Below, one piece after another: positions 7,555 to 52,707 of a stretch of 64,000 nucleotides of DNA (positions are counted from its first letter, which is position 1; every line of letters starts with the position of its first letter). Under the pieces are notes generated by a model. The model was not told the origin of the DNA, did not search any database, and saw only the letters and a list, made by a program, of their open reading frames with translations. Source of the stretch: a virus. The position numbers and the translations under genes were made by a program. The stretch lies in IMG/VR virus record IMGVR_UViG_3300036391_000001, positions 7,563-71,562 of that record; one strand, given 5' to 3'.

Positions 7555-7636
7555 TTTAGTCGTTCTTCCTCCTTTGGGGTGACTAGGTTAAGTTGCAAAA
7601 AGCCTGCCGAGATTGATACCGATGGCAGGCTTTTTG
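7555..7636 (+). ncRNA. Candidate small RNA with anti-SD loop and terminator
   Basis: TATACT at 7546; TAGTC/GACTA stem with CTTCCTCCTTT loop; AAAAAGCCTGCC/GGCAGGCTTTTT terminator at 7597-7635. Confidence 0.4.
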
Positions 7637-25818: not shown

Positions 25819-26583
25819 GTGCCTAGAAAGTTTGAGCCAGAGAAACACTGTGGAGCGATCGGCAAGAACGGTCAGCCTTGCACCCGCCCCAAAGGATCGG
25901 CAACCGATCATCCCGGTGAGGGCTGTTGCTACCTGCATGGGGACGCGGCGATCGTGCCTGTTGATGTGCCTGTGGAAGCGATCGCTGAGGTGGTCGTTCC
26001 CATCGCTGTCCGCCATCCCAACAAAGCCAGACCCGCCAATCAGAACGCGGTCAAGCATGGGCTATATGCCAGAGTATTGACGGGCGCGGCGGCAGTGCGG
26101 TTTGAGGCAGTGCAGCAACATGATCCGGCTTCCATCCTGCGAGAAAGTTTCTGCATGGTCCATGCCCGTGCCCTAGGGCTACTGGAAGGAGAGGGCAAGT
26201 TCGATCGCCAAGCTCAGACCGTTCTGGAAGCTTGCACCGTGCTAGTTGAGGCAGGGGAGCTGTCCGAAGATTTTGTCAAAGAGCTGGAGCTGCGGCTCTT
26301 GAATCTGGACATTGAGCGCCTTGCCCGTATCCTCAACAGCACGGTCAACCTGGCAAATGCGGCGGTATTTCATGAGCGCATGGGCAATTTGCAGCGGCAA
26401 TACGATCGCCTGATGGGATACCTGCAAGATTCGGTGAGATTGGGCGATCGCTCTATTAAGGAGCTGGCACTGCAAGCGATTCAGGAGCTGAAGCTTGAGG
26501 CAGGATTGCCGCTGGAGGAGCTAAATATGGCTTTACAGGCAATTCAGGAGGTTAAATCGGGTGAGGATGAGGAAGAAGCTTGA
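25819..26583 (+). CDS. Putative terminase small subunit
   Basis: N-terminal CGA..K.G.PC...C..HG Zn motif and NQNAVKHGLYA signature common in terS-like proteins. Confidence 0.7.
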   Translation: MPRKFEPEKHCGAIGKNGQPCTRPKGSATDHPGEGCCYLHGDAAIVPVDVPVEAIAEVVVPIAVRHPNKARPANQNAVKHGLYARVLTGAAAVRFEAVQQHDPASILRESFCMVHARALGLLEGEGKFDRQAQTVLEACTVLVEAGELSEDFVKELELRLLNLDIERLARILNSTVNLANAAVFHERMGNLQRQYDRLMGYLQDSVRLGDRSIKELALQAIQELKLEAGLPLEELNMALQAIQEVKSGEDEEEA

Positions 26584-26633
26584 ACTTCCGTACTACAATT
26601 GCGCTTAGCGTAGAGTTTAGGGGACTTCTGGCT

Positions 26634-26909
26634 ATGAATAAGGCGGAACTCGTGACGGCGATCGCCACCAAGACGGAATTTAGCAAGAAAGATATTGATT
26701 TGGTGCTATCAGCGGCGATCGAGGCGATTCAGGGCGCTGTTGCGGCTGGAGATAAGGTGACATTGGTAGGGTTTGGGAGCTTTGAACCGCGTGAGAGGGC
26801 GGCTCGTGAGGGGCGGAACCCTAAGACCGGAGAGGCGATGCAGATTCCAGCGAATACGGTTCCGGCATTTTCGGCAGGCAAGCAGTTTAAAGATCTGGTG
26901 GCAAGATAG
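26634..26909 (+). CDS. hup: HU family DNA-binding protein
   Basis: MNKAELV...GDKVTLVGFGSF...AREGRNPKTGE...PAF signature. Confidence 0.96.
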   Translation: MNKAELVTAIATKTEFSKKDIDLVLSAAIEAIQGAVAAGDKVTLVGFGSFEPRERAAREGRNPKTGEAMQIPANTVPAFSAGKQFKDLVAR

Positions 26910-26935
26910 ATTTTCCTTCCAAATAGATGTCAGAT

Positions 26936-26964
26936 AGCGCTTCTCAGGTCAGGGGCGCTTTTTT
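26936..26964 (+). terminator. Hairpin plus U-tract after hup
   Basis: AGCGCTTCT...AGGGGCGCT followed by T-run. Confidence 0.5.
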
Positions 26965-27020
26965 GCACGTCGCAAAACGGAGATGGGCACTGTAGGGATG
27001 TTGAAACCGATCGCCCCTCT

Positions 27021-27887
27021 ATGCCCCGTATTCAAACCGACTGGCTACCCACAGAACAATTAATGACCGCCTTTCACCCGCTGAACCCGATTCAGCATGA
27101 GGTCGAGGGCGATGTAAAGGATTTGGCGCTCTCGCTGTTGGAGGGCGGCTGGGTTGAGCCGATTACCCTAAATCAGCGCAATGGGCGGCTGGTAGGCGGA
27201 CATGGGCGAGTCGAGGCGGCGAACTGGCTCTTGCAGCAGTCTGAATCGTGGTTCGAGCATCGCTGGCAGCTATGGACGGCACATCACGAGGGCGGCGTAA
27301 GCGATGAAGAGCGTTTCACCGCAGAGTATTGGCAGAAGGCGCTAGTGCTAATGGTGGATCTGAGTGAGGCAGAGCATGAGGCAATGCTGATCCGCCTGAA
27401 CGACACCGAGAGCCAAGGCAAGGACGACCCGGAGAAGTTGAAAGCGCTGCTAGGACAGCTCCCCGGCAGGTTAAAGCAGCTAGCCGGGTATAGAGAGGCG
27501 ATAAGTGCTTCACACCCACAAGTGACCGCCCCAGAACCCCAGACCACCGAAGACTTTCAGGACAAGCAGCGGTTTGAAGCAGCAGGAGCGATCGATTATC
27601 GCGTCGCCGATGCACCGGAGCCAGACACGGCAGAGTATGCCAGTGGGGACGTGACAGAGTATGACGATCCGGATCAGGCGGGTGAATGGATTGAGGACGA
27701 AGAAGAGGATGAGCCTATTGAGCCGAAAGCGCCGCCGCCTGTGAGGGCTTTGTCGGTATCGCTGACCTGGGCACAGTGGAAGCTTTGGAATACCTGGAAG
27801 CGTGAGAACGATATCTCCAAGGATACCGATGCGTTTGTTAAGGGGCATGATGCCTATCAAGTTGTGGAGGAACCCGCCGATGCCTGA
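27021..27887 (+). CDS. ParB/Srx N-terminal domain protein, paralogue 1
   Basis: NP..H...L..SL..GW..PI..N...GRLVGGHGR motif; acidic linker. Confidence 0.82.
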   Translation: MPRIQTDWLPTEQLMTAFHPLNPIQHEVEGDVKDLALSLLEGGWVEPITLNQRNGRLVGGHGRVEAANWLLQQSESWFEHRWQLWTAHHEGGVSDEERFTAEYWQKALVLMVDLSEAEHEAMLIRLNDTESQGKDDPEKLKALLGQLPGRLKQLAGYREAISASHPQVTAPEPQTTEDFQDKQRFEAAGAIDYRVADAPEPDTAEYASGDVTEYDDPDQAGEWIEDEEEDEPIEPKAPPPVRALSVSLTWAQWKLWNTWKRENDISKDTDAFVKGHDAYQVVEEPADA

Positions 27888-28056
27888 ACTGAGCTTAGAA
27901 CAGTGCTTTGCGCTAGCGCACTTAGAGAAGGAATGCGAGCAAATGACGCTCGATCAAATCCGCGATCGCCTGATTCAGACCTACGAGCGCACTTTGCGAA
28001 TGGAAGCACAGTATCGCGCTGCGCTTAAGAAACAGTGGGGGATTGGCGATGCCTAA
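27880..28056 (+). CDS. nblA: NblA phycobilisome degradation protein
   Basis: MPELSLEQCFAL...MTLDQIRDRL...YRAALKKQWG matches the NblA LSLEQxF and Y..LLKxQWG signatures; 58 aa. Confidence 0.85.
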   Translation: MPELSLEQCFALAHLEKECEQMTLDQIRDRLIQTYERTLRMEAQYRAALKKQWGIGDA

Positions 28057-28966
28057 GAAACCGGAGATCCTTTATAAGACCGTCACTGAGCTGATGGCGC
28101 GGCATCACGAGGATAATCCTCGCGTCCACGGTTGGGATGCTGATTTGCCCAAATTGGTCAGGAGTCTCCTATTCTCAGGCTGGTGTGAGTTGCCCTCCTA
28201 CAACGAGAATAACGATCGCCTCATCGGGGGGCATGGGCGCGTCATGGCGGCTGAGTGGATGATTCAGCAAACGAAGGCTTGGTATGAAGAGCAATGGCAA
28301 TCCTATCTAGCCGTCAATCCTAGGGGCAGCAAGAAGGATAGAGAGCGGTTTGACGCGGGGTACTGGCTAAAGGTGCCTGTGCGGGTGAATCGTCTGGATG
28401 ACTCGCTGCACAAGGCAATGATGGTGCGGCTCAACAACCCAACCAGCCGGGGACGCACTAAGGAAGATATGAGGACGCTGCTCCTGTCGCGGCTGACTCC
28501 AGCGGCTCAAGACATTGCCATTCCCGACCCGGAACGCCGATCGCGGCTATTGGGGGCGATCGCCACTAAACGGGCTGAGGGTGCAGATGCTGAGGTGATC
28601 GAGCAGCAGGAACAGGCTGAAGGGATGGCGCGGGTGCAAGAGTCGCTAGCGGGTTTCGTGCCGCAAGAACCCAGTGATGCACCGCCCTCAGCTTTTGCGC
28701 CTGTGGCAAATCCCCAGACCTCTGCGGATTTGGATGCAGCCATTGATCCGGAGCCAGTCATTGAAGAAGGCGGGGCGCATTACAACGAAGATCCGGAGCC
28801 GGGGAAGAAGAAAGCGATCGCTTACCCACTGGCGATCGTGCTGTCGAATCGGCGCTGGCAAGAGTTTGAGGCTTATAAGGCGGCGATCGGGGTAGTCAGT
28901 GACCAGGTGGCGTTCCTCAAGGGCCATGTCGTATTTAATCAGAAAGAGGAAGAAGGCGATGAGTGA
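28049..28966 (+). CDS. ParB/Srx N-terminal domain protein, paralogue 2
   Basis: DNPRVH...LVRSL..SGW...YNE...RLIGGHGR; shares ERF.A.YW and FxKGH motifs with paralogue 1. Confidence 0.82.
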   Translation: MPKKPEILYKTVTELMARHHEDNPRVHGWDADLPKLVRSLLFSGWCELPSYNENNDRLIGGHGRVMAAEWMIQQTKAWYEEQWQSYLAVNPRGSKKDRERFDAGYWLKVPVRVNRLDDSLHKAMMVRLNNPTSRGRTKEDMRTLLLSRLTPAAQDIAIPDPERRSRLLGAIATKRAEGADAEVIEQQEQAEGMARVQESLAGFVPQEPSDAPPSAFAPVANPQTSADLDAAIDPEPVIEEGGAHYNEDPEPGKKKAIAYPLAIVLSNRRWQEFEAYKAAIGVVSDQVAFLKGHVVFNQKEEEGDE

Positions 28967-30191
28967 GAGTCTGAGTGTGTTTTGGGGTGGGCTGTTCAAC
29001 AATGCCTGCATCCCTCTAGAGATGAGCTTGAATTGGTGCAGTATGGGCTGCTCTTACTGCTTTGCCAATCTGAACAGCCCTGATCGCACGGGCAACATGA
29101 GTCAGATCATGGGGCTGATTAGCCAGTTTCAAGAGAAGAACACTTACGCGGCGGCGCTGCTGCGATCGGGTTATCCCGTTACCCTTTCCAATCATGTCGA
29201 TCCGTTTGCCGACAGCAATTCCCGTCAGGCGCTCGTCATTCTGGAAACGATGACCGAACTGGGCTTGCGCTACTCAATTCAAACCAAGTGCGGTAAATCG
29301 GGCTATGACTTTCTGAAGTTTGCATCGCCAACGGTGTTCTATATCTCGATCGCCACCATGGATGAAGAGGTGCTGCGGCGTGTCGAACCCGGTGCGCCAT
29401 CAGCTAAAGAGCGGTTCAAGTTTATTGAGGCGGCGCGAGCTGCGGGGCATCGGGTTTGTGTAGGCATTAACCCGGTGGTGCCGGAATGGATTGGCGATCC
29501 GAATCCCCTATGCAAAACGCTGGCTAGTATTGGCGTAGAGAGCGCCTGGGTGCAGCCGCTGCACTTGAGCTGTCATCATGTGGACAACATGAGCGATCGC
29601 GAGAGAGCGGCAATGGGTGAAACCGTTCTGAAGCGAGGGCGCAGGTTCCGCAAAGACCTGGAGATGAAAGAGGCTTGCACCCGCACCCGTGACGCAGCGG
29701 TTGAGCATGGGCTAGAGGTTTATGACGCGCAGCAGCGAGAGCGATCGGATTACTTCAGACCCTACAAAGAGACGTATCCCAAGACTTTCCCGCTGGTTCA
29801 GGACTTTGTAAACCACTGTTATGACAAGGGATTAGCTCCGAATGATCCCATCTACTTTGAAGATTGGCGAGACTTTATGCTGCCTCAGCTTCCGGCTGGT
29901 GTGCATCCGCTAAGGAACCACTTGGGAGCGGTGCAGTATCAGCAGTTTTGGCGGAGCGATCGCAACGATGAGATCCCGCGCTACATGACCTATGAGACGT
30001 TTTTGGAGATTACCTGGAATAACCATGACATCGTGTTTCATCCCTGCCATGTGGGCTGCTTCACGCTAGCAGGGGGCGCTAAGAATGAAGAGGGCAAGTA
30101 TCCGCTGCATCTAGACGATAACGGGCGCTATATCCTGCTGTTCCGTCCAGACGGCTGCTATGAGCGTGCTGCTGAGTGGGAGATGTGGTGA
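28959..30191 (+). CDS. Radical SAM protein, SplB/COG1533-like family
   Basis: CSMGCSYC (CxxxCxxC); DPF; IQTK; SIATMDEEVLRRVEPGAPS..ER motifs. Confidence 0.88.
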   Translation: MSESLSVFWGGLFNNACIPLEMSLNWCSMGCSYCFANLNSPDRTGNMSQIMGLISQFQEKNTYAAALLRSGYPVTLSNHVDPFADSNSRQALVILETMTELGLRYSIQTKCGKSGYDFLKFASPTVFYISIATMDEEVLRRVEPGAPSAKERFKFIEAARAAGHRVCVGINPVVPEWIGDPNPLCKTLASIGVESAWVQPLHLSCHHVDNMSDRERAAMGETVLKRGRRFRKDLEMKEACTRTRDAAVEHGLEVYDAQQRERSDYFRPYKETYPKTFPLVQDFVNHCYDKGLAPNDPIYFEDWRDFMLPQLPAGVHPLRNHLGAVQYQQFWRSDRNDEIPRYMTYETFLEITWNNHDIVFHPCHVGCFTLAGGAKNEEGKYPLHLDDNGRYILLFRPDGCYERAAEWEMW

Positions 30192-30311: not shown

Positions 30312-31637
30312 CTAGTCTTTCAATCCAGCGGCATCTGTAATCACTGTTCCAATAGAATTCGCAAAGAACTCAGGCGGCAGACCGCAAGCAAGACCAAAAT
30401 TCAAGCACAAATGCAACCAAAGAGTATCTTCAGTACCAATAAATAGTCCCTTTTCCTCGTCCTTAGGAAATCGTACATAATCCCTCATAAGCACAGGTAA
30501 GCCTAGCTGTTGAACGTGTTCTCCCCACGAGTCGAAGTCGTAGAACGGTACATGCCTCCACACACCATTAAGTTCTAATGCCACCTGAAAGTCAGTCAGG
30601 CTTGTTGTCTCACCAAGCCACTCCAGATAGTAATTCGCCAAAAAAGCAATCGTCAGCCAGATTGTGCCGACATTAAAGAATTTGAGGCTTGTATGGTGTC
30701 TACCACCTTTTATTTCAAGTCGATCAAGAATTTGCTGACGCACTATGGGTGAGCGAATTTTTGAAAAATCTTGCAGTTCAATTTGAGATAATGGGATAAA
30801 GATTTTTGCCCTACCGAGCGAGTCAAGCTCCATGGTGAGCGAGTGAAATGCTTCGTTCTGAATATTTGTGAGTCGGAGTACCACAGAGCTAGGAGTTGGA
30901 TGGGCCGCATTAAACGCTATGTTTCCTGATATTGTTGTCGCCTCAGGATTACTAAATAATGGAATCTGAATTGCTTTTTCGCTGGCTTTGAGTAAACCTT
31001 CAATTACCGATTTAGAACGTACATCAGGATGGTCAGTTAAGCCTAAGGGATATGGAGAAATATAGATTTTCAACCAACCATCCTCCTCAGCATTGCTGAA
31101 AGTGCGATCATCTTTTGAAAATCGTGCAAATTGTTTTGAAACTTCTTTTCCTCGTTCAACAAGCTGATCCACGGCATAACGACTCGATTCTGGTATGGGG
31201 TCAGAAGAATCATGAGTACGTCGATATAATCGTCCATCTCTTGTAATGAACGGAGTCTCCTGTTTATCAGGAATATGTACGACAAGCACTAAATTTCCGG
31301 TATCGAGCGTAATGACCTGTGGAAAAAAGACAGGCACCGGATCAATATGGTGCTTAACCAAATCGCGAACGACTGAGATTGGATCATGACAGGATGCAGG
31401 GTCAAAGCCGGAGACTACTGCTGCAACATTATGCTCATCAGTCTTGATCCCTACGATGTACCAACCACCATAAGTATTTGCAAGGGATGCCAAACTTCGA
31501 CCTATCTTTGTTGAGTTCGGCATCTCCCCTTTGTACTCGACGTAATAGCCTTCCGCTACTTGCCGTGTAATTAAGGTCTGAAGATCCTCAGGCTGAAGTG
31601 GTTCTCCAACTGCTTTGTCAAAAGGGTTATAGCTCAT
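30312..31637 (-). CDS. Schlafen/AlbA_2 domain protein (putative defence moron)
   Basis: EGYYVEYK...SLASLANTYGGWYIVGIK...R.H N-terminal motif; AT-rich; no HIP1 seen. Confidence 0.82.
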   Translation of the reverse strand: MSYNPFDKAVGEPLQPEDLQTLITRQVAEGYYVEYKGEMPNSTKIGRSLASLANTYGGWYIVGIKTDEHNVAAVVSGFDPASCHDPISVVRDLVKHHIDPVPVFFPQVITLDTGNLVLVVHIPDKQETPFITRDGRLYRRTHDSSDPIPESSRYAVDQLVERGKEVSKQFARFSKDDRTFSNAEEDGWLKIYISPYPLGLTDHPDVRSKSVIEGLLKASEKAIQIPLFSNPEATTISGNIAFNAAHPTPSSVVLRLTNIQNEAFHSLTMELDSLGRAKIFIPLSQIELQDFSKIRSPIVRQQILDRLEIKGGRHHTSLKFFNVGTIWLTIAFLANYYLEWLGETTSLTDFQVALELNGVWRHVPFYDFDSWGEHVQQLGLPVLMRDYVRFPKDEEKGLFIGTEDTLWLHLCLNFGLACGLPPEFFANSIGTVITDAAGLKD

Positions 31638-31932: not shown

Positions 31933-32367
31933 ATGGAAGATTTGATTTGTATTCAGCAGAGCAACGGCGCTCAGGCTAGCAGCGTTGATGTCACCGCTAA
32001 AGAGCGGGTTTTGGCAAACGGCGCACGCGCTTACCAAGCAGTTGACAATGCTACGGGCGGCAACAGCGATCGCGGCAGAAACTCTGGCTTTTCTTCCTTC
32101 AGCCGGACTGCCAATCGAATCACTGGAAGCGCTGCAAAATCGCAGGAATCAGCGGCTAAGAGCCTCCTGACTCGCGCTCAGCGTCAGATGCAGAGCGCAA
32201 CAGGCGCTGCGAAAGATAAGGCTAGCAAGTTCTTGGCGAAAGCTAAAGCTAAAGCGGCAGACACCTTTACTGCACCCGTCAGCGCAGCGCGATTGGTTAA
32301 TTCCAAGTCCAAGAAGTCTCAGGCGGGTAAGCGCACGACCTCCAGCCGGGTCAAGCAAGCCGCGTAG
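31933..32367 (+). CDS. Basic Ala/Ser/Lys/Arg-rich low-complexity protein
   Basis: AGGAG RBS, strongly biased composition, hairpin and U-tract downstream. Confidence 0.7.
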   Translation: MEDLICIQQSNGAQASSVDVTAKERVLANGARAYQAVDNATGGNSDRGRNSGFSSFSRTANRITGSAAKSQESAAKSLLTRAQRQMQSATGAAKDKASKFLAKAKAKAADTFTAPVSAARLVNSKSKKSQAGKRTTSSRVKQAA

Positions 32368-35907: not shown

Positions 35908-35985
35908 ATGCTTGAAACCATCGTGATCTCGCTCTACATCCTCTCGGTTTGCGTCCTAGCCGATCGCTTCACTAGGAGCGCTTAG
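35908..35985 (+). CDS. 25-aa hydrophobic peptide coupled to terL
   Basis: MLETIVISLYILSVCVLADRFTRSA; TAG overlaps the terL GTG; conserved motif 35 nt upstream. Confidence 0.35.
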   Translation: MLETIVISLYILSVCVLADRFTRSA

Positions 35986-37472
35986 TGGGACATTGGGCGG
36001 CGCTGCTGCAGGATGAAATTGACTTGCGGCGGCAGGTAGAGGCAGAAGCTGACGTAGGCTGTACGCTGTTTGAGAAGTTCTCGCCTAGACCGGGTGGGCA
36101 AAGTCGGTTCTTTGAGTTCGCGCCGATCGCCAGCACCGAGCCGATGGATACGCGCTGGCTCGGCTTGATTGGGGGCATCGGATCAGGTAAGAGCCATTGC
36201 GGGGCAGCCTGGTTCTGTTCTCGGATGCTGCTTGATCCAGATAGCCGGGGGCTGGTCACAGCCAATAGTTATGGGCAGCTTGCGAGATCTAGTCTGATGA
36301 CGCTGGCTGAGATTTGTAGAGACTTCGACATTCCGCTAGAGCCTTGGGTAAGTGGCTCTGTGGAAGATACGGCGTTAGCGATCGCCAATCGTCAGCGCTG
36401 TTACATTGGCGAGGATCGGGCGTTTGTCTATGTCCTGTCGCTCAATGCGTTTATGGGCAGAGTGCAATCAGCACGGGGTTTACAGGTGAGAACCTCGTGG
36501 ATTGATGAGGGAGCTTATGCAGGTGAAAAATCGTTTCAGACGCTGGATGGAAGATTAGGGCGTGGACCCGGATTTCTCAAAGGGCAAGGGCTGATCACCT
36601 CATCGCCCAACGGCTTTAATTGGATTTACGATCGCTTCGCTGACCCCAACAGAGCTGCTGAACTCAAGGTTCTGTATGTGATGTTTTCTTGCTCAACCCG
36701 TGACAATGTGGAGTCGCTGGGCGAAGACTATGTGCAGTCGCTCGAAGCCAACTACACCGATGAGCTTGCCGCTCAGGAGCTTGAGGGTGCGTTCATTAAC
36801 ACCACTACTGGACGGGCTTACAAATACTTCGATCGCGCCAAACATGCGATGCAGGGTGAGGATGCTGAGATCCTGTTCTATGACCCAAATCTTGACCTGC
36901 ACGTTAGCTTTGACTTCAACTACAGCCCTGCAACTTGCACCTTGGCCCAGGTTCGAGGGAATGAGGTGCATTTCTTCAAAGAGTTTTTCGTGATGGATTC
37001 AGACACTTGGGAGATCACGTCGATGGTAACGGAGGCGATCGCTCAAGGCAAACATCAAGCAGAAATCTATATCTATGGCGATGCGTCAGGTTCGGCGCGA
37101 ACGGCGGTGAGTCGCCAAAGCAATTGGGACATTGTGTTCAACGGCTTTAAAGACATTGGCTACCACCTGGGCTTAGGTGGCAGGCTGCATCGGCGATTCG
37201 CTAAGGCGAACCCGCCCGTGAAGAACCGAATCAATAGCTGCAACTGCCTGTTCAAGGCTAATCGCGTGTATGTGGATTTGGAGCAGTGCCCAGAGCTAAC
37301 GAAGGATTGGGAAGTGGTGGGCATCATTGAGGGGGAGCTGGACAAAACAGACCCGCTGCGAAGTCACTTGTCGGACGCAGCGGGTTATTTGATGCATACG
37401 CTCTTTCCCTACAAGAATGTGGCGATCGAGCTGCGGGGGAATCATGGGGCTGTTAAAGGGATTGCAGGTTAG
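35985..37472 (+). CDS. terL: Terminase large subunit
   Basis: GGIGSGKS Walker A, WIDE Walker B, SSPNG coupling motif, C-terminal nuclease SFDFN, YGDASG, HLSDA. Confidence 0.93.
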   Translation: MGHWAALLQDEIDLRRQVEAEADVGCTLFEKFSPRPGGQSRFFEFAPIASTEPMDTRWLGLIGGIGSGKSHCGAAWFCSRMLLDPDSRGLVTANSYGQLARSSLMTLAEICRDFDIPLEPWVSGSVEDTALAIANRQRCYIGEDRAFVYVLSLNAFMGRVQSARGLQVRTSWIDEGAYAGEKSFQTLDGRLGRGPGFLKGQGLITSSPNGFNWIYDRFADPNRAAELKVLYVMFSCSTRDNVESLGEDYVQSLEANYTDELAAQELEGAFINTTTGRAYKYFDRAKHAMQGEDAEILFYDPNLDLHVSFDFNYSPATCTLAQVRGNEVHFFKEFFVMDSDTWEITSMVTEAIAQGKHQAEIYIYGDASGSARTAVSRQSNWDIVFNGFKDIGYHLGLGGRLHRRFAKANPPVKNRINSCNCLFKANRVYVDLEQCPELTKDWEVVGIIEGELDKTDPLRSHLSDAAGYLMHTLFPYKNVAIELRGNHGAVKGIAG

Positions 37473-51051: not shown

Positions 51052-52707
51052 TCAACCTGCATTCAGTTCAAGCTGTTCACCCTCCCTTTCAATGTGGCGT
51101 GCAGAAGATTTTAGGACACCTGCAACTAAGGGCAAGCCGAGTCTAGTCTTGCCCTCTAGCACCTCTTCAATGGTGACAATCTGAATGCGGGGGGTGTCTG
51201 TATTGAACGACTCAGAATGATATAGCCCACAAGCCTTTGCCTCTTTCACCATTGCCTGTGTTGGCGGCTTGAGGGTGAGGAAGACTCCCAGCTCAGCGTT
51301 CTCTCGGCTGATTGTGCCAAACAAATCTCGAATGTCTCTAGAGTCAACCTTTCCCGACTTTACTTGGAAGATGACGCGACCAAACTTTTTATCAGTGATT
51401 GGAAAGAATCCCCACCCATCAACGCCCTGGTCTGCTCCCTTCTTCTGATTGATGGCGGCGCGGTTACTGGAGTAGGTCAGCACCGCCCATTTCTCAAACT
51501 CTTTTCGTAGCCGATCGTCTTTTTTGAGTGCCAACGCCTCAGCCGATTTTATGTCCTTGGGGATGCCTGTAAGCTTAAGCGAGTCCGAACTCACTACCTG
51601 AGCACCATGAGTGTCCTCTAGACGCTTCAGAATGAGGCTGATGCTTTGGTAGGTGATGTCGATGCCAATCCACTGGCGATCGAGCTTCTGGGCGACCGCT
51701 ACAGTCGTTCCGCAGCCACAGTAGGCATCTAGTACAACATCCCCTACGTTGCTACTTGCTTGGATGATGCGCTCCAGCAAAGCTTCGGGTTTCTGAGTGG
51801 GATAGCCGAGGCGTTCTTTATCATGTGCGCTTAAAGATGGAATGTCATCCCAAACATCAGATGTAGGAACCCCAGGCATTTCATCTAGGTAGCGCTTGAG
51901 TTGGGGTCGTTTGGATTTGCTATCTGGATACCAAATCCTGCCTTGAGCATCTAGCCCTGCCATTGTTTCCTTGGAATACCGCCAGCCGTTAGATGGCGAT
52001 AGAAATCCCTTCCATTCGTACATCATGTTTGGGCGAGGACTAGGGCTAGTCATGTCAGATAGCCGATAGCAGCGACCAGCCACGTCTGTGTGACGATAAA
52101 AGTCTTTAATATATTTCTCAGAGTAAGGAGAATATTGAACATTAAAACAATGTTGATTGCTCTTGGCGTAAAGAAAGATGATGTCGCTTGTAGAACCGTA
52201 TCGGCGTTTTGCGTCATTATGACCGTTGGTTCTTTTCCAAGTAATCTCGTTCTTAAAATCTCCGCCTTGTGAGCAGAAAACAGAGTCTAGAACCAACTTC
52301 AGATAGTGGCTAGACGTGGGATCGCAGTGCAAATAGAAGCTACCAGTAGGCTTGAGAACGCGATGAATTTCAGCAATTCGTAGGGTCATGCTGATGAGGT
52401 AAGCCAGCAAGCTACTTGCGCCCAAAACGTAATGCAGACCGATGATTAGGTCGATCGTCTGCTTGGCGAAAATCCCTCGATTGTTCTCTACGATTTCTTT
52501 GTAGCCGTTGATGGCTAAATCGTCCCAGTTCCAAGTATCAACAAAGGCTTGAGCCTGAGCTGCATCTTCTTTGCCAACGTTGTTGTAGATCTGGTTGTAA
52601 TTTCTTTTGGAGTTGAAAGGTGGATCGATGTAGCACAAATCCACCACTTCATCTTTGATGTGCTTCCTAAGAACTTCGAGGCTATCACCGTAATACAAGC
52701 GATTCAT
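51052..52707 (-). CDS. N6-A/N4-C DNA methyltransferase with C-terminal Mrr-like domain
   Basis: DPPFN motif [20 protein letters not shown]; GADQGVDG...IFQVKSG. Confidence 0.9.

Follow-up and report, generated by a model that had tools for sequence, protein, structure and literature searches.

The window described here, a 64,000-nt stretch of virus DNA (IMG/VR record IMGVR_UViG_3300036391_000001, positions 7,563 to 71,562), is a prophage-like element of a filamentous cyanobacterium; the element's relatives lie in Leptolyngbyaceae and Oculatellaceae genomes, and the window carries nblA. Within it, two ParB-fold proteins, ParB1 and ParB2, are encoded together with a radical S-adenosylmethionine (rSAM) enzyme. 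We propose, with moderate confidence, that the three form a module in which ParB serves as the adaptor and the rSAM enzyme as the effector, and which modifies a base of the phage double-stranded DNA (dsDNA) after replication. The chances appear to us evenly divided that this module is of the 'ParB-terminase locus' type, with the rSAM enzyme replacing the usual methyltransferase, which would make it an effector new to such loci. The evidence, drawn from comparative genomics and predicted structures, consists of the coupling of the genes, the conserved pairing of ParB with rSAM, the equivalence of the rSAM slot to that of DNA-modifying enzymes, a ParB tail specific to the effector, an intact cluster motif and the fold of the enzyme. 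The genes concerned are as follows.

27021-27887, plus strand: ParB1, 288 aa (PHROG 620, ParB profile, tail profile)
27880-28056, plus strand: nblA, phycobilisome degradation protein, 58 aa (Pfam PF04485)
28049-28966, plus strand: ParB2, paralogue of ParB1, 305 aa (PHROG 620, AlphaFold2 model, Foldseek)
28959-30191, plus strand: rSAM enzyme, 410 aa (Pfam PF04055, invariant CxxxCxxC)

Three 8-nt start/stop overlaps (ATGCCTGA, ATGCCTAA and ATGAGTGA) join ParB1, nblA, ParB2 and the rSAM gene. These four genes are one tightly coupled unit, which may be separate from the genes of a 254-aa protein and the histone-like protein HU that lie upstream. An earlier reading of this DNA, made from its sequence (the original prediction), had correctly listed HU, both ParB proteins and the rSAM enzyme, but it omitted nblA from between the ParB genes. 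The nblA gene (Pfam PF04485, E 8.5e-9, cutoff 25 bits) overlaps both neighbours by 8 nt and is cargo, outside the module. It is absent from three relatives, L001, L193 and L194, where ParB1 directly abuts ParB2 and the ParB1-ParB2-rSAM trio is kept. Because the two nblA junctions in the window are near-identical (gATGCCTGA at 27880-27887 and gATGCCTAA at 28049-28056) and the relatives' ParB genes abut, nblA looks like a recent insertion that preserved translational coupling.

The pairing of ParB with rSAM extends well beyond this element. The rSAM family comprises at least 328 clusters (50% identity, E ≤ 1e-30, exhaustive search; a word-indexed search gave 53 clusters at 90% identity) and is known solely from uncultured phages and prophages, in at least nine phyla. 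None of its members was found among 50,697 cultured phage records (INPHARED), where only distant archaeal-virus genes matched. Hosts include Cyanobacteria, Blastocatellia, Chloroflexia, Chitinophagaceae, Chlorobiota, Betaproteobacteria, Methylococcaceae, Saccharibacteria and Synergistetes. We compared 80 loci from IMG/VR (78 of which entered the counts) with 26 prophage loci from species-representative genomes, calling open reading frames (ORFs) in the fetched loci by a simple longest-ORF rule. When all neighbouring ORFs were clustered, the sole family that tracked the rSAM gene was a ParB-N protein of ~200-250 aa. It was present in 57 of the 78 IMG/VR loci, immediately upstream (position -1) in 39, and stood at -1 in 17 of the 26 prophage loci, which span at least nine phyla. 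Dereplication at 70% identity left 46 lineages; ParB was at -1 or -2 in 32, and 38 had it no more than 3 genes away. The co-occurrence on which the original prediction leaned is therefore conserved. Adjacency and same-strand order hold down to 27% rSAM identity.

Downstream of the pair lie terS, terL and the portal gene, and a recognised terL was found within 5 genes in 29 of the 44 well-flanked rSAM loci. Among these terL genes, at least four unrelated families are represented (PHROG 15, 2 and 979, and gpA). Since the terL families vary, the ParB-rSAM pair moves as a unit between backbones and stays ahead of the packaging genes.

Two further observations concern the family as a whole. Eight contigs of one Leptolyngbyaceae metagenome-assembled genome (L087-L092, L099 and L108) each carry a ParB-rSAM pair with an rSAM enzyme 44-47% identical to the window's, which points either to an element present in several copies or to a bin that combines several phage variants. 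Genes with ADP-ribosyltransferase domains (ART/ADPrib_exo_Tox) are located near the rSAM gene at L002:9248-9916, L068:7020-7787 and L004:10378-12201, with no ParB at -1; these genes could encode effector domains packaged in the head, or could be linked to the rSAM gene in function.

What stands beside this type of ParB when the rSAM gene is missing bears directly on the likely substrate. A search of IMG/VR with one subgroup of rSAM-linked ParB proteins yielded over 587 loci, from which the 80 best were taken for comparison, a set that is biased to that one ParB subgroup and whose counts are not dereplicated. These 80 loci contain no rSAM gene, and a ParB ORF was callable in 73. Fusion to an N6_N4 DNA methyltransferase predominated (56 of 73), followed by Mom (9) and a C5 methylase (4), with no effector found in the other 4. 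In these methylase and Mom loci, too, terS and terL follow ParB. Conversely, a methylase or Mom gene occurs within 4 genes in just 7 of the 78 rSAM loci. Because the sister loci carry methylases or Mom at this place, the slot of the rSAM gene is one used elsewhere by enzymes that modify DNA bases. The window conforms to the statement of the original prediction that no methylase lies adjacent, its sole methyltransferase-like ORF being at 51052-52707 on the minus strand. That ORF has N6_N4-type similarity (E down to 1e-12), lies 21 kb from the module and is without a ParB domain.

The ParB proteins themselves differ according to the effector beside them. In L066, the rSAM-linked ParB has an N-domain and linker 78% identical to those of the Mom-linked ParB of L113 and the C5-methylase-linked ParBs of L114 and L115, whereas the last ~45 residues are unrelated between the L066, L113 and L114/L115 types. 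The rSAM-linked ParBs all share one tail, including those whose N-domains are only 15-25% identical, with the pattern PLAIVL - s....W...K - G..(S/T)D..AF..L. For a profile of this tail, matches numbered 56 + 20 proteins in the rSAM loci, against zero in the 80 methyltransferase/Mom loci; as the profile was built from rSAM-linked sequences, matches there are expected and only the absence from methyltransferase/Mom loci is informative. The C-terminal 'AF(V/L)KGH domain' that the original prediction described in the window's two ParB proteins is this rSAM-type tail: it is indeed conserved, but it is common to essentially all rSAM-linked ParBs and so is not private to the pair. By sequence pattern and AlphaFold2 secondary structure, the tail's succession of strand, helix, Gxx(S/T)D turn and helix may correspond to a ribbon-helix-helix; a sequence search of the PDB with the tail profile gave nothing significant. 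Such dependence on the effector would be expected of an element for docking or activation.

The same dependence can be seen on the other side of the comparison. The ParBs of L113, L114, L115 and L124 have N-domains 68-78% identical and tails that vary with the next gene; those linked to C5 methylases end in a Cys-rich 'CPSCGYEW' tail and those linked to Mom in a different strand-helix tail. These patterns suggest a general code of exchangeable, effector-specific ParB tails.

The tail also bears on the possibility that ParB and rSAM are independent accessory genes that share an insertion site upstream of the terminase and have no coupling. Accessory genes are known to accumulate where the replication module meets the packaging module, and in the window nblA, Schlafen-like and ArdC genes are inserted there; moreover, this type of ParB is far commoner without rSAM (more than 587 loci). 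Mere co-location is nevertheless quite improbable in our judgement. It does not readily account for a tail present in 76 proteins of rSAM loci and absent from all 80 methyltransferase/Mom loci, for adjacency and strand order kept across such divergent rSAM enzymes and at least four terminase families, or for the overlap of start and stop codons in the window.

We next consider the enzyme. Residues 1-256 constitute a single-cluster rSAM core with the CxxxCxxC motif and a COG1533-like 'SNHVDPF' motif, and residues 257-410 constitute a family-specific C-terminal domain of ~150 aa that is conserved in the family. The three cluster cysteines, C27, C31 and C34 (C-S-M-G-C-S-Y-C), are invariant in 31 homologues, an aromatic residue precedes the third, and Pfam Radical_SAM (PF04055) matched at 40.8 bits against a cutoff of 29.5, all of which bears out the assignment as a CxxxCxxC rSAM enzyme. 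Y128 is likewise invariant in the 31 homologues, and no other cysteine is. The AlphaFold2 model has a confidence score (pLDDT) of 93.8, and rSAM enzymes top all fold searches. For residues 257-410, an Atlas feature search gave no usable match, and fold searches, which used the whole 410-aa model only, returned nothing specific. The chemistries of class A (RlmN/Cfr), class B (cobalamin) and methylthiotransferase enzymes were considered and rejected, there being no further invariant cysteine and no extra cofactor domain. In AFDB, a related rSAM domain (E 3.4e-8) lies inside an entry auto-named C5 DNA methylase, a name that belongs to the entry as a whole, so that the fusion is a putative one.

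The CxxxCxxC motif is also a site of intein insertion. The rSAM homologue at L001:7917-9536, 70% identical to the window's, carries a mini-intein of ~129 aa that immediately precedes the third cluster cysteine (..CSY|C-intein-N|CFANLN..), with a free-standing HNH_3 gene just upstream. The family member P0096 has an intein of ~343 aa at the same site, and P0127, which is N-terminally truncated, has the matching C-terminal junction (..N|CFANLN..). Since L001, P0096 and P0127 share the site, inteins have repeatedly occupied the catalytic motif of the family.

The original prediction had called the enzyme 'SplB-like', and this proved right at the level of fold and superfamily but not of family membership. 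The best named neighbour is the uncharacterised Rv2578c, which ranks first by fold in Swiss-Prot (Foldseek E 4e-12, 20% identity) and, in NCBIfam, matches at E 2.6e-12 with 46.4 bits against a cutoff of 430; PA0069 reaches 29.1 bits against 360. PHROG 9252, 'DNA repair photolyase', gave a sub-threshold E of 4e-5. Among solved structures aligned with VIA-align, pyruvate formate-lyase activating enzyme (PFL-AE; Z 17.7) and spore photoproduct lyase (SPL; 4fhc, Z 17.5, root-mean-square deviation 3.5 over 238 residues) were tied at the top, with viperin and NifB ranking after them in the fold searches; the Foldseek E of ~1e-4 for SPL is like that for many rSAM enzymes. No SPL sequence model in Pfam (PF20903) or NCBIfam matched at E ≤ 0.01, and a PDB sequence profile search found no SPL at E ≤ 1, only spurious phosphatase matches.

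An SPL-type repair enzyme, which would reverse a UV or radical lesion after ParB had delivered it to the genome, would fit the co-best structure and the sub-threshold COG1533 and PHROG matches. It would also fit the biology of the named relatives, as the promoter of Rv2578c is bound by LexA and the gene is LexA-regulated (PMC3381160) and SplB-like rSAM enzymes occur in SOS-linked operons (PMC3765255), as well as a host that is a light-exposed cyanobacterium. However, PFL-AE matches equally well, which places the likeness at the level of the core fold, no SPL sequence model is matched, and there is no invariant cysteine outside the cluster motif to act as hydrogen-atom donor. The prophage hosts, moreover, include Synergistetes, Saccharibacteria, Methylococcaceae and Chitinophagaceae, so the family is not tied to light, and the host range takes in anaerobe-associated phyla. 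Sister loci carry DNA writers, methylases and Mom, in the same slot. We thus consider repair unlikely. Where the original prediction had left open base modification or UV-lesion repair, repair is the weaker half, in view of the non-phototroph hosts, the lack of an SPL model match and the writers of the sister loci.

The tie with PFL-AE raises a different possibility, namely that the enzyme acts on a target other than DNA: a nucleotide, as viperin does, a protein, through an activity like that of glycyl-radical activases or through modification of a packaging or capsid protein, or SAM itself. The linkage to ParB and the terminase would then reflect shared timing or a nucleotide bound by ParB. 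Viperin and NifB rank next after PFL-AE and SPL, ParB folds bind CTP or ATP (PMC12704722), 7 of the 44 well-flanked rSAM loci have terL but no ParB, and ADP-ribosyltransferase-domain genes adjoin the rSAM gene in a few loci. But neither a glycyl-radical enzyme nor any other partner recurs in the neighbourhoods, where ParB alone recurs; activases and viperins lack the ~150-aa C-terminal domain; and the slot equivalence with methylases and Mom, together with the effector-specific tail, points to DNA. We find a non-DNA target doubtful for these reasons.

If the rSAM enzyme is the effector of a DNA-modifying module, ParB would be the DNA-side partner, and the properties of ParB1 and ParB2 are of interest in this regard. 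Both have a ParB/Srx (ParB-CTPase fold) N-domain. They are paralogues, as originally predicted, with 31% identity over their full length (E 2e-38), and both match PHROG 620, 'ParB-like' (ParB1 E 3.8e-15, ParB2 E 1.4e-12). ParB1 matches the ParB profile and the tail profile built in this analysis at E 1.9e-41 and E 4.1e-16. Neither protein reaches the threshold of Pfam ParB_N (PF02195), which is matched by 16 of 48 aligned family members. The AlphaFold2 model of ParB2 (pLDDT 86) gave ParB, Noc, KorB or PadC N-domains as its top 24 Foldseek matches, with E from 2e-3, including CTP/CDP-bound ParB, Noc and KorB N-domains. ParB2 has only 5 homologue clusters among 5.8 billion proteins, and ParB1 gave a single marginal match in cultured phages (INPHARED), to a methylase gene. 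ParB1 orthologues in L193 and L194 are 56% identical to it.

The two paralogues differ in their predicted nucleotide-binding motifs. ParB2 keeps box I NPR, box II GGHGR and box III RLN, and its orthologues retain the box I arginine. In ParB1 this arginine is replaced (NPI for NPR), and all four ParB1 orthologues have NPI or NPN. With the box I arginine gone from ParB1 and present in ParB2, the proteins may work as an asymmetric pair; the ParB heterodimer of the original prediction is a putative one.

Both proteins also carry an insert of ~33 aa after the GHGR helix, which is well folded in the model. It is confined to a clade of the window's ParB1 and ParB2, their orthologues in L001, L193 and L194 and the metagenomic proteins P0055-P0059, so the 'private insert' of the original prediction stands at this length, but the 'H.AM..RLN' portion assigned to it belongs to the ordinary ParB box III helix. 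The acidic disordered linker was described correctly: it is acidic, with pLDDT <50 at residues 225-249. Within the ParB1 linker (window 27500-27700), a stretch, DKQ.FE...DYRV...P.PDTA.Y.SGDV..Y, is conserved in L193 and L194, orthologues of 56% overall identity, and looks like a short linear interaction motif, not a mere spacer.

From these data, a sequence of steps can be envisaged. The ParB-fold N-domain would engage DNA and possibly a nucleotide, as its family membership suggests. The rSAM-specific C-terminal tail would then couple ParB to the enzyme, as the dependence of the tail on the effector suggests. The enzyme, whose motif and fold are as observed above, is predicted to cleave SAM reductively at its single [4Fe-4S] cluster, and the resulting 5'-deoxyadenosyl radical would alter a base of dsDNA after replication and before or during packaging. 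In the cyanophage lineage, the ParB gene has been duplicated, and ParB1 and ParB2 would possibly work as the asymmetric pair. The position of the genes is what would place the action on DNA being packaged; the DNA substrate, the docking of the tail, the moment of action with respect to packaging and the type of chemistry are proposed in the same conditional sense. The assignment of ParB as DNA-side partner and rSAM as effector is partly supported, by the conserved linkage, the slot equivalence and the effector-specific tail. A more specific form of the proposal, that the enzyme is the first rSAM 'writer' of dsDNA, recruited by ParB through its tail to install a carbon-centred, non-methyltransferase base modification before packaging, is one that we advance tentatively.

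Several observations weigh against the proposed module. Gene context is what points to DNA as the substrate. The enzyme is without the second conserved cysteine pair and the cobalamin domain that are hallmarks of known rSAM methylases, and because these are missing no known DNA-writing chemistry can be assigned to it. In roughly one fifth to one third of rSAM lineages, ParB is not among the nearby genes. No ParB-rSAM fusion occurs among the 150 best family representatives, and there is none among 204 retrieved proteins, in which the long forms are intein insertions. The tail profile carries the circularity stated above, and in the window the module lies 5.8 kb upstream of terL.

The last point concerns the surroundings of the module, for which the following features are relevant.

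25819-26583, plus strand: possible small terminase subunit, 254 aa (weak terS matches)
26634-26909, plus strand: HU-type histone-like DNA-binding protein, 91 aa (Pfam PF00216, PHROG 379)
26936-26959 or 26936-26969, plus strand: terminator-like hairpin and T-run after HU (consensus scan)
35985-37472, plus strand: terL, large terminase subunit (PHROG 2, E 8.5e-34)

The order on the plus strand is thus the 254-aa protein, HU, the hairpin, ParB1, nblA, ParB2 and the rSAM gene. The hairpin lies 3' of HU and has a stem of 9 bp with 5 GC pairs, followed by the T-run; sites of this type are no more numerous across the region than in shuffled sequence, which makes the hairpin no more than suggestive of a break. 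Because a terminator-like hairpin follows HU, there are probably two transcription units rather than one operon. Between the rSAM gene and terL is a 5.8-kb block of mostly opposite-strand accessory genes, among them Schlafen/AlbA_2, clamp-like and ArdC genes. The data do not support the single packaging-linked operon of the original prediction, given the hairpin after HU and a terL located 5.8 kb beyond the rSAM gene.

The 254-aa protein had been called terS, an identification that is not upheld, with sub-threshold matches only and a distance of 9.4 kb from terL. Three terS models matched it weakly overall, with PHROG 9231 and 509 at E ~1e-3 and NCBIfam TerS_not_xtmA scoring 17.8 bits where its cutoff is 120, and the matches are confined to residues 21-115, to a stretch of ~50 aa or one short motif. 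It has an N-terminal Cys/His-rich HGGxSTG-like segment and a 'NQNAVKHGLYA' motif, and an Atlas feature search placed it with HGGxSTG-domain clusters at 0.90 and with terS clusters at 0.78. An orthologue of 48% identity has the same position in L194, and no match was found among cultured phages (INPHARED). A role as small terminase subunit is possible. The HU assignment is confirmed (Pfam Bac_DNA_binding PF00216, E 4.8e-33; PHROG 379, E 2.8e-35); in the relative L001 the HU gene is instead the immediate upstream neighbour of terL.

Downstream of the rSAM gene and past a minus-strand Schlafen/AlbA_2 gene (30312-31637), positions 31933-32367 on the plus strand encode a basic, low-complexity, Ala/Lys/Ser-rich protein of 144 aa with no family match. 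A homologue directly follows the rSAM gene in L001 (L001:9571-10125), and the protein might be DNA-associated or a virion protein. The window DNA has no nucleotide match in cultured phages (INPHARED).

ParB-fold proteins are nucleotide-binding accessories to DNA-modifying enzymes in DpdA/DpdB and DndB-type systems as well; there the effectors are a transglycosylase and a sulfur-insertion machinery, and the genes reside in cellular defence islands, not near phage packaging genes, and are not known to be related in sequence to those of the present module. An experimental precedent is a phage ParB homologue required by the thymine dioxygenase paired with it, which it activates when the substrate is dsDNA (5mYOX176/ParB176; O'Toole et al., PNAS 2026, PMC13229309). 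That activation is pair-specific and needs both the nucleotide-binding N-domain and the C-terminal domain, and the ParB homologue has no helix-turn-helix (PMC13229309). The thymine dioxygenase systems resemble the present module in having a short ParB beside a post-replicative DNA base-modifying enzyme, with terminases as frequent neighbours. They differ in that the effector there is an Fe(II)/2-oxoglutarate dioxygenase and here an rSAM enzyme, and in that ParB dependence there is experimental whereas here it is inferred; kinship between the tails of the two is not shown.

For the 'ParB-terminase large subunit' loci, it was predicted that their methylases modify the DNA of the phage as it is packaged (Iyer/Aravind, PMC4738411), and a 2025 survey described prophage-enriched fusions of ParB-CTPase folds to N6_N4 methylases (PMC12704722). 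The rSAM loci share with these a ParB N-domain of up to 78% identity, a site just upstream of terS/terL and a predicted marking of DNA. They depart from them in that a separate rSAM gene replaces the methylase or Mom and the ParB tail is distinct; the window, in addition, has two copies of the ParB gene and a terL at a distance of 5.8 kb. With the SplB/COG1533 group (Rv2578c, PA0069), the enzyme has in common a single-cluster core, a similar fold and a 'DPF/DPY' motif after strand 2. Unlike that group, it scores far below the family cutoffs (46 versus 430 bits) and has the extra ~150-aa C-terminal domain, and its context is a phage with ParB rather than sporulation or SOS. Full-text searches of the literature library consulted yielded no paper on a ParB-rSAM pair, and PMC12704722 and PMC13229309 do not mention radical SAM. 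ParB-coupled phage modification loci are known; what is new here is a proposed rSAM effector, in at least 328 clusters, with a family-specific ParB tail.

Phage DNA modifications have been the source of many tools and of defence and counter-defence mechanisms, with new chemistry arriving alongside every new class of effector. The activation of a DNA-modifying enzyme by a ParB-fold protein is itself a very recent discovery (2026). If the proposal is true, radical chemistry would join methylases, Mom and thymine dioxygenases among the effectors loaded by ParB. The pair offers a two-gene, testable system for a possible new DNA modification, for the selection or activation of an effector by ParB and for the hypothesis of exchangeable tails, and it bears on the role of orphan COG1533-like 'DNA repair photolyase' rSAM enzymes. 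Should the enzyme turn out to be a repair or non-DNA enzyme, its conserved coupling to ParB would still be informative and would still call for an explanation.

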